Below are positions 32,801 to 34,047 of a DNA stretch of 55,188 nt, piece by piece. The DNA lies in IMG/VR virus record IMGVR_UViG_2850802633_000006; one strand, 5' to 3'. Every line of letters starts with the position of its first letter. The first letter of the stretch is position 1. The position numbers are program-made. Source of the DNA: a virus. Its lineage: Duplodnaviria; Heunggongvirae; Uroviricota; Caudoviricetes.

Positions 32801-34047
32801 AGAACAGCAGCCGACAGGCCGTATTTGATTTTTGCGCTCATGGATATTTATCAGGATTTATCGGCAACAAATAACGAGCCAACTTATATACGCCTTTTAA
32901 GATAAGTCAGCCCCGGCTGGATCCAGTCATCAGGCTCTTTCTTAAAGGGGGAGTATTGAAATCACGAAGAAGAGCCTCCCGCACCGCAGCATCCATGTCT
33001 GCACCACTGGCAAGTGCTTCAATCTCTGCCGCCACCTGCAAATACCCCATGCAACGGCCAATGCGTTTCATAACTCTGGTGTTTTCGTCTTTCAGGCATC
33101 TGATAGCGAGATTAATAATTTTCAGGCAGTGATGATGCGATGCCCGGACAGGTTTTCCGTTCTCATAAACGACGAACTCACCCTCTTCACAGGAAACCCT
33201 GAAAGGCCGATGGGGTTCCTGGTCTTTATCCGGTGCAGACGCAATAAAATCACTTTTATGCTCTTCCTCTCCGGCACTGTTAACCGTAATGACGTACTCA
33301 GGCCGCAGGTAAGCCGCCTCTTTTTCTGACAATGCGGCCGGTAAAAACTTTTCCTGCAAAAACTTCATAAAAGTCTCGTGAGCGACTTTGTGGCAGTAAT
33401 CGTAAATCGCCGCATAATGCTCATCGCGGCGTTTGTTTTCATCTTCAGAACTCACCAACACCGACAATTTTTTATTAAGCTCAGTGATTTCATTTTCCAG
33501 GTGATTGAATCGCTGATTCATTTCTTCATGCTTCATTATTTACTCTCCCCGTGCAGCCTTACGCTTGTCTTCTCTTATTTTGAAATACAGATTCGTCAGA
33601 TAAGTCAGAAGCCCCAGAAGCAGACTTCCCAGCACACCAATCGCAGCCCACTGTGATGGCCTGACCTGATCCAACCACTGCAAAAACCAGTAGCCGGCAC
33701 TGCCGGCGGAGGTGCCGTAGGCAATGCCCGTTGAAATTTTGTCCATGGATTTCATAGCCTCACCTCCGCAAATAACGGATGGCGTAGTTTTACACTGAGA
33801 AATGAAAGGGATTTGAAAAGAAAAAAACGCAAAAGCGGGCGAAACGATATATACAGTAAGGAAAGCACTCTATCCAACAAACCACCCACAGTTAATCGGA
33901 ATAAAAGCAGAGTGCTTATGAATGATCGCACGCCCGAAGGTTAGTATTTCTGCACAGCAATTTTGCAAAAAAAGGCGATCATTCATAACTTAAACGTCTT
34001 TCAGTCACTCCGGGATTTCCCATCATCGCAGACTGAAAGACTCTGAC

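Follow-up and report, generated by a model that had tools for sequence, protein, structure and literature searches.

One of the closest described counterparts of the gene treated here is ydfR (b1555) of the Qin prophage of Escherichia coli K-12 MG1655, where the gene order is essQ-ydfR-rrrQ-rzpQ. YdfR, a DUF1327 (PF07041) protein, is reported to interact with the N-terminal, catalytic half of RNase E (residues 1-597/598) in bacterial two-hybrid and pull-down experiments, and RNA co-purifies with it (PMC13232886). In the literature on ydfR, DUF1327 and essQ/rrrQ, this 2026 RNase E interactome paper was the sole functional evidence found, and it concerns the DUF1327 domain, not the module described below. 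Here, we analysed a clean 630-bp open reading frame (ORF) that lies co-oriented between the pinholin gene (S) and the endolysin gene (R) at positions 32907-33536 (minus strand) of a 55,188-nt stretch of DNA, hereafter the window, from the Caudoviricetes virus record IMGVR_UViG_2850802633_000006. A sequence-only reading had taken this ORF to be an unrecognised gene inserted between two normally adjacent lysis genes. On balance, and with moderate confidence, the best explanation for the whole is that the ORF is a gene of a late-operon slot, that it encodes a headless module of the YdfR family, that its product is accessory to lysis and not part of the core machinery, and that this copy is probably impaired.

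The ORF product matched PHROG 1085, a family of unknown function, with an E value of 8.1e-74 (249.6 bits), where ORF residues 1-209 aligned with profile positions 117-288 of 296; on this match, the window protein is assigned as a partial, C-terminal member of the family. A protein search recovered 132 homologue clusters in Escherichia/Shigella, and RefSeq lists the equivalent 630-bp gene, in a region of 99.7% DNA identity, as hypothetical protein WP_001300760.1. Given these homologue clusters, the PHROG 1085 match, and a ratio of nonsynonymous to synonymous substitution rates (dN/dS) below 1, the ORF goes beyond chance, and it is a genuine gene of a lambdoid prophage late operon of the Shigella/E. 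coli type. Searches of Pfam, NCBIfam, and PADLOC gave nothing significant for the ORF product apart from chance-level coiled-coil matches. At E ≤ 1, PADLOC-DB 2.0 contained no defence family for the window protein or for its long relative P0004, and another long relative, P0090, matched only PbeC at the chance level (E 0.018). The product was therefore rightly called unrecognised in so far as it belongs to no characterised family, but it already had entries in PHROG and RefSeq; the family is already catalogued but uncharacterised.

Relatives of 285-333 aa, many of them named 'YdfR family' or 'DUF1327 domain-containing', carry PF07041 in their N-terminal 75-110 residues, and in the alignment the window protein corresponds to everything after this DUF1327 head. 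For example, P0004 (333 aa, 'YdfR family protein', with PF07041) aligns with 94% of the window protein at 82% identity, and P0090 (296 aa) matches phrog_1085 from end to end (positions 1-296). When 35 aligned relatives were searched against Pfam at E ≤ 1, only DUF1327 (8 of the 35) and coiled-coil noise were obtained, and the window protein itself gave no PF07041 match at this threshold. Judged from these alignments, the ORF product is the C-terminal two-thirds of the long YdfR-family proteins, in a stand-alone 'headless' form with its own start codon. Headless alleles are common (185-222 aa, starting M(N/K)HEEMNQRF), and at one locus (L002) DUF1327 is encoded separately, behind the headless gene.

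The content of the junction between holin and lysozyme was surveyed twice in IMG/VR. The first survey comprised 80 sampled loci with a holin at least 90% identical to that of the window. All 47 loci with an RrrQ-type lysozyme carried a DUF1327 gene in the 312-1085 bp between S and R, and S and R abutted in all 27 loci with another lysozyme type (about 33% identical); the other six, mostly contig ends, had no lysozyme downstream in the retrieved DNA. The second survey used the window module as the query and covered the best 80 of 186 IMG/VR stretches, in which the order holin > X > RrrQ-type lysozyme (X being the slot gene) was found at every locus, with 71 headless genes and 9 with a DUF1327 head. 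A convergent small gene (phrog_1853 or phrog_10490) preceded R in 26 of these 80 loci. DNA homology between cassettes is lost precisely where S ends and returns 10-30 bp before R (about 10 bp in the comparison with K-12, whose essQ and rrrQ are 77 and 89.7% DNA-identical to the window S and R, respectively). Because an intervening YdfR-family gene is the rule where an S21-type holin is combined with an RrrQ-type lysozyme (47/47 such cassettes as well as K-12 Qin), the premise of an unusual insertion fails, and the S-R junction of Qin-type cassettes is a permanent accessory slot subject to recombination rather than a rare insertion site. The sequence-only reading had proposed a cassette survey asking whether the gene is universal; in spirit this is true of a filled slot, but not of the specific module found in the window.

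Among complete E. coli genomes, 1066 of 5426 (about one in five) hold some DNA of the gene, and 79 hold at least 80% of it. In many of the remaining genomes, a YdfR pseudogene has been truncated, and 165-440 bp of the 3' end of the gene persist behind it without annotation (for example, L093, NZ_CP020516 2123057-2123984, and L094), a pattern frequent enough to conclude that the long fused gene often decays in resident prophages. Intact alleles are present in Stx2a-converting phages, and a one-genome-per-species scan returned three loci only (S. flexneri, E. coli, and Escherichia sp.).

Regarding the convergent gene, a copy of about 105 aa (phrog_1853, unknown function) lies directly downstream of X at L001 3654-3968, L091 4807-5124, and L177 4308-4625 (all on the minus strand). 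The copies of an E. coli Stx2a phage (L001) and a Salmonella Dublin prophage (L091) are 50% identical, and in three E. coli loci a 95-aa gene (phrog_10490) takes the place of phrog_1853. Neither family had a Pfam match, and neither is present in the window. The recurrence of the pairing across genera suggests that X and the convergent gene form a linked pair.

The ORF starts with ATG and comprises 209 codons and a stop codon. The spacer to R (32842-32906) is 65 nt long, as had been stated, but that to S (33537-33539) is 3 nt rather than 4 nt. A Shine-Dalgarno-like motif, GGGGAGAG, sits inside the 3' end of the holin gene, which suggests that translation of the ORF is closely coupled to that of S. 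Since the antiterminator gene Q and the tRNA genes lie upstream of S, the ORF is inside the lambdoid late operon, and a consensus scan of the minus strand detected neither a promoter-like sequence in the spacer after S nor a terminator-like one in the spacer before R, in agreement with the tight packing and presumed co-transcription described earlier. In the 65-nt spacer before the lysozyme start (…GATAAATCCTGATAAATATCC ATG), no obvious GGAG-like Shine-Dalgarno motif was seen. The product is acidic to neutral (isoelectric point, 6.1) and soluble-looking, with a grand average of hydropathy of -0.62, a top 19-residue hydropathy of 0.76, and no transmembrane segment. Its N-terminus, described as charged and coiled-coil-like, is indeed helical and charged in the models, but the supposed Cys/His-rich C-terminal half was not borne out, as the 5 Cys and 10 His residues are split 7 and 8 between the halves.

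Outside Escherichia, homologues were few. A hidden Markov model search of 1.84 billion representative proteins gave only 41 matches, the distant ones from Salmonella, and a profile of distant relatives gave 184, mostly Salmonella enterica clusters together with E. coli relatives. At all five Salmonella or metagenome loci examined, the homologue is placed after Q (frequently accompanied by a HicAB or ParE module) and before the holin, which is a PF04971 member at three loci and a PF16080 member at two. The module is consistently a late-operon gene beside the lysis genes, tied neither to one holin family nor to the S-R junction, and because the Salmonella homologues adjoin two different holin families, a dedicated role as an S21 partner is disfavoured.

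These placements also bear on the view that the protein is a cytoplasmic regulator of lysis timing, which would tune the moment of lysis by contacting the pinholin from the cytoplasm or by an effect on the endolysin tethered to the membrane. Soluble cytoplasmic lysis regulators such as T4 RIII and P1 LydB exist, the module stands in or next to a lysis cassette in 80/80 Escherichia-type and 5/5 Salmonella or metagenome loci, and the start of the ORF just behind S, with its Shine-Dalgarno-like motif within S and no separate promoter found, would suit such a regulator. We nevertheless consider it unlikely, as the two holin families concerned are unrelated and the module stands at differing positions beside them, S21-type holins paired with the other lysozyme type do without any slot gene, and the slot content is freely swapped, with DUF1327 alone in K-12. 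Adjacency is in any case weak evidence, because the Q-to-S region is a general cargo hotspot. No match to a known lysis accessory family was found either: the product has no membrane segment and no significant Pfam match, and all of its PHROG matches carry the category 'unknown function' and none 'lysis'.

The window copy differs from intact alleles by a 1-nt deletion near its 3' end. Intact alleles read ...ACN CCN CCC TTT AAG AAA GAG CCT GAT... and end ...PPFKKEPDDWIQPGLTYLK(G/R)RI, whereas the window allele reads ACT CCC CCT TTA AGA...; the conserved 22-residue tail PPFKKEPDDWIQPGLTYLKRRI is swapped for PPLRKSLMTGSSRG, and the copy, ending in LRKSLMTGSSRG, lacks the tail expected of a PHROG 1085 member. 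S. flexneri SFBU1023, whose DNA matches the window at 99.75% identity over 5.6 kb, carries the same frameshift, as do E. coli ECMA0423 and FDAARGOS_944. It also occurs in 11 of the 79 IMG/VR loci that were scored, and the clusters P0001 and P0003, which share it, comprise 181 and 101 member sequences, respectively. As the lesion recurs across genomes, it is not a sequencing error but a true lineage-specific mutation. With the conserved tail replaced and several insertion sequence (IS) elements in the prophage, this copy is probably impaired or inactive.

A stronger form of this conclusion, which we consider unlikely, is that the window ORF is a decaying relic without activity that is still open only because the frameshift is recent. 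The 22 residues lost through the deletion are the most conserved ones, the DNA of the tail, although out of frame, is still nearly ancestral (hence a recent event), the prophage contains four IS3-family transposase ORFs with an IS just beyond Rz, and slot genes are often pseudogenised in E. coli, as the truncated YdfR genes and their 3' remnants illustrate. On the other hand, 196 of the 217 ancestral residues are intact, and many genomes and viral contigs retain the 209-aa allele with no additional damage.

AlphaFold2 gave a poor model for the window protein with a 25-sequence alignment (predicted local distance difference test score (pLDDT), 53), which was not used for fold searches. The intact homologue P0002 (217 aa, 90% identical, 35 sequences) was modelled instead, with a mean pLDDT of 73.7 and values of 75-92 over residues 110-217. 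In this model, helices 3-27 and 31-64 form an antiparallel coiled-coil hairpin and residues 78-108 a disordered, acidic linker; the remaining part, hereafter the orphan domain, has strands 113-117, 120-125, and 128-131 and helices 134-149, 155-176, 183-193, and 210-216. The orphan domain is thus predicted to be a unit of about 105 aa composed of a three-stranded beta-meander and four helices. By homology to P0002, the window ORF would encode the hairpin (~3-64), the linker (~78-108), an alpha/beta domain (~110-196), and a frameshifted 13-residue tail. The Foldseek search of the predicted structure against PDB and BFVD that had been suggested found no relative at E ≤ 1e-3, and the best hit in a profile search of PDB sequences was not meaningful (E 0.058).

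Near-invariant positions of the family cluster in (I/L)GR-x-MG-x-LQ-x-AAEIE (core, (I/L)GR(C/S/A)MG(Y/L)LQ), and a second conserved cluster is the tail, D-x-PP(F/L)K...W-x-x-PG-x-x-Y(L/I), in both the E. coli and the Salmonella branches. Using the Nei-Gojobori method, dN/dS was estimated overall against four to six homologues and by segment with the frame-repaired copy. The overall values were 0.34-0.54. The core (residues 154-196) showed 0.07-0.17, and the tail (residues 197-217) showed 0.12-0.39 in five of six comparisons and 0.83 against L131 (21 codons), compared with 0.3-0.5 for the coiled coil and 0.3-1.5 for the disordered linker. By these estimates, the core motif and the tail are under strong purifying selection. 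A zinc site formed by C48, H134, H136, and C162 was considered and rejected, as this ligand set is not conserved in the Salmonella relatives: only H136 is near-invariant family-wide, C162 is replaced by S or A in the Salmonella relatives, and C48 and H134 are variable or absent.

The segment of the beta-meander and first helix (residues 109-153; window 33078-33212) occurs in two deeply diverged allelic types. These types differ by a synonymous divergence (dS) of 1.7 or more, against 0.16-0.9 for the flanking segments in these gene pairs, a contrast that points to intragenic mosaic recombination. Diversifying selection on this segment was rejected, as dN/dS was 0.2-0.3 with saturated dS; these values indicate old alleles shuffled by recombination.

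Mosaic alleles with two deeply diverged versions might also be expected of a moron-like late fitness gene serving defence, superinfection exclusion, or counter-defence. This role, for which the position in recombination-prone cargo, the HicAB or ParE toxin-antitoxin modules adjoining the Salmonella homologues downstream of Q, and the frequent convergent small gene also speak, appears very unlikely to us. PADLOC gave no match, and without a promoter or terminator of its own in our consensus scan the gene is presumably not expressed in the lysogen, which is where exclusion genes exert their effect; late expression fits counter-defence poorly, and the divergent segment reflects shuffled old alleles rather than positive selection. 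Regarding the two functions put forward in the sequence-only reading, lysis regulation and superinfection exclusion, nothing found points specifically to either.

Returning to the accessory slot gene that we favour, the ORF product would not belong to the core lysis machinery, and as the slot content is interchangeable or absent in homologous cassettes, the module appears dispensable for the lysis pathway. Most likely, it would be a soluble, cytoplasmic accessory protein that is oligomeric via its coiled coil, is present late in infection, and docks onto another protein. The likeliest arena would be host RNA decay or processing in the late phase, a tentative suggestion made because the module is fused to or encoded beside DUF1327 and because YdfR is reported to bind RNase E. 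With the same low confidence, the C-terminal module may serve the process in which its DUF1327 partner works, as an arm for an effector function or for oligomerisation.

Several points weigh against this interpretation. Overproduction of YdfR had only small effects on the transcriptome (PMC13232886). The window protein is without DUF1327, and therefore the RNase E link rests on fusion or adjacency in relatives and is not directly transferable. The module is always in or beside a lysis cassette, which would fit a lysis-related role equally well, and the promoter and terminator scan relied on sigma-70 and intrinsic-terminator consensus patterns only. As for the impairment of this copy, the frameshifted allele is widespread and otherwise undamaged and may still be active.

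A broader proposal, which we regard as improbable, is that the orphan domain represents a new class of late phage effector travelling with the lysis cassettes of Escherichia, Shigella, and Salmonella, acting either as a timer of the pinholin/signal-anchor-release (SAR) endolysin pair or as an RNase E effector arm delivered by DUF1327. If the latter were true, host RNA decay would be reprogrammed late in infection, the conserved tail would be a docking element, and the window allele would be a natural tail-less mutant. Taken alone, the window copy is an ordinary and probably degenerate feature, and the interest comes from the orphan fold and the widespread slot. DNA of the gene is found in prophage lysis cassettes of about a fifth of the complete E. 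coli genomes, Stx2a-converting phages included, and the present analysis maps the modules of the family into a DUF1327 head, a coiled coil, an orphan domain, and a conserved tail. Should a family function be found, the natural tail-less allele would provide a ready comparison.

The surroundings of the ORF are summarised in Table 1. An Rfam scan found the four tRNAs only. The first tRNA of the cluster was called tRNA-Met (CAU) by ARAGORN, whereas its equivalent in FDAARGOS_944 is a tRNA-Ile according to RefSeq; possibly, it is of the Ile2 type with a lysidine modification. The IS elements are located between the lysis cassette and the terminase gene, and because they separate the two, the window prophage is probably defective. 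The element at 30262-31418 may be IS600-like. A 60-aa ORF (31459-31641, minus strand, starting MNKSLTVLPSGEYPTMSSLEMVDYINADRK...) lies just downstream of Rz and adjoins the IS region; it had no Pfam match at E ≤ 1e-5 and resembles the N-terminal remainder of a longer gene interrupted by the IS. In S. flexneri SFBU1023 (L086), homology to the window stops at 31911 within Rz, with IS sequence directly next to it, whereas Rz is complete in the window, and the IS insertion points are therefore independent.

Table 1. Features of the late region of the window (positions refer to the 55,188-nt stretch)
Feature	Position	Strand	Basis or remark
ORF under study (209 aa, headless PHROG 1085 allele)	32907-33536	-	ORF listing, profile match, homologue alignment
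Ancestral reading frame	32884-33536	-	One C restored gives a 217-aa product with the canonical family tail
Frameshift site, five C (GGGGG on the + strand)	32947-32951	-	Intact homologues read CCNCCC; one C lost
Shine-Dalgarno-like GGGGAGAG	33543-33550	-	Read from the sequence; inside the last holin codons, 6 nt before the ORF ATG
S21-type class II holin (pinholin type), 71 aa, essQ-like, dual-start motif MKSM	33540-33755	-	PF04971, E 5.5e-35
RrrQ-type lysozyme, 177 aa, Gly/Ala-rich hydrophobic N-terminus	32308-32841	-	PF00959, E 5.4e-24
Rz-like spanin	31844-32326	-	PF03245
Rz1-like lipoprotein ORF embedded in Rz	31885-32091	-	ORF listing
Four tRNA genes (CAU, Arg-UCU, Thr-UGU, Gly-UCC), between Q and holin	34048-34358	-	
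Phage antiterminator Q	34558-34974	-	PF06530; marks the start of the late operon holding the ORF
IS3-family transposase ORF (rve domain)	24911-25729	-	
IS3-family transposase ORF (rve domain)	26547-27215	+	
IS3-family transposase ORF (rve domain)	29036-29875	+	
HTH_Tnp_1 orfA paired with the transposase at 30600-31418	30262-30564	+	
IS3-family transposase ORF (rve domain)	30600-31418	+	

Compared with known systems, T4 RIII and P1 LydB are functional analogies only: they are likewise small cytoplasmic proteins, expressed together with the holin, and have no similarity in sequence or fold to the window protein. The Salmonella enterica homologues (for example, P0125 and P0163) share the C-terminal domain and the tail motifs, in most cases preceded by a DUF1327-like head and a coiled coil, and likewise belong to a late operon where they adjoin lysis genes, but their identity to P0002, the intact E. 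coli homologue, is 30-36%, and they are found after Q and ahead of the holin instead of at the holin-lysozyme junction. K-12 YdfR has the same slot and orientation between essQ and the RrrQ lysozyme, with homologous flanking S and R genes, and it is fused or adjacent to the window module in relatives; however, it is a 103-aa protein of the DUF1327 domain with no sequence similarity to the window protein, and ydfR overlaps rrrQ by 4 nt, whereas the window ORF ends 65 nt before R. The long YdfR-family proteins of PHROG 1085 share the coiled coil, linker, C-terminal domain, and slot with the window protein, and differ by the DUF1327 head and linker of about 115 aa, missing in the window gene, and by their intact last 22 residues. 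The intact stand-alone alleles (185-222 aa; for example, LC567842 BCI98956 and WP_001015165) of E. coli and Stx2a phages keep the tail ...PPFKKxPxxWxxPGLTYLKGRI that the window allele is without, many of them have the other allelic type of the beta-meander and first helix, and about a third are followed by the convergent small gene missing from the window; like the window gene, they are headless and stand in the order S > X > R.

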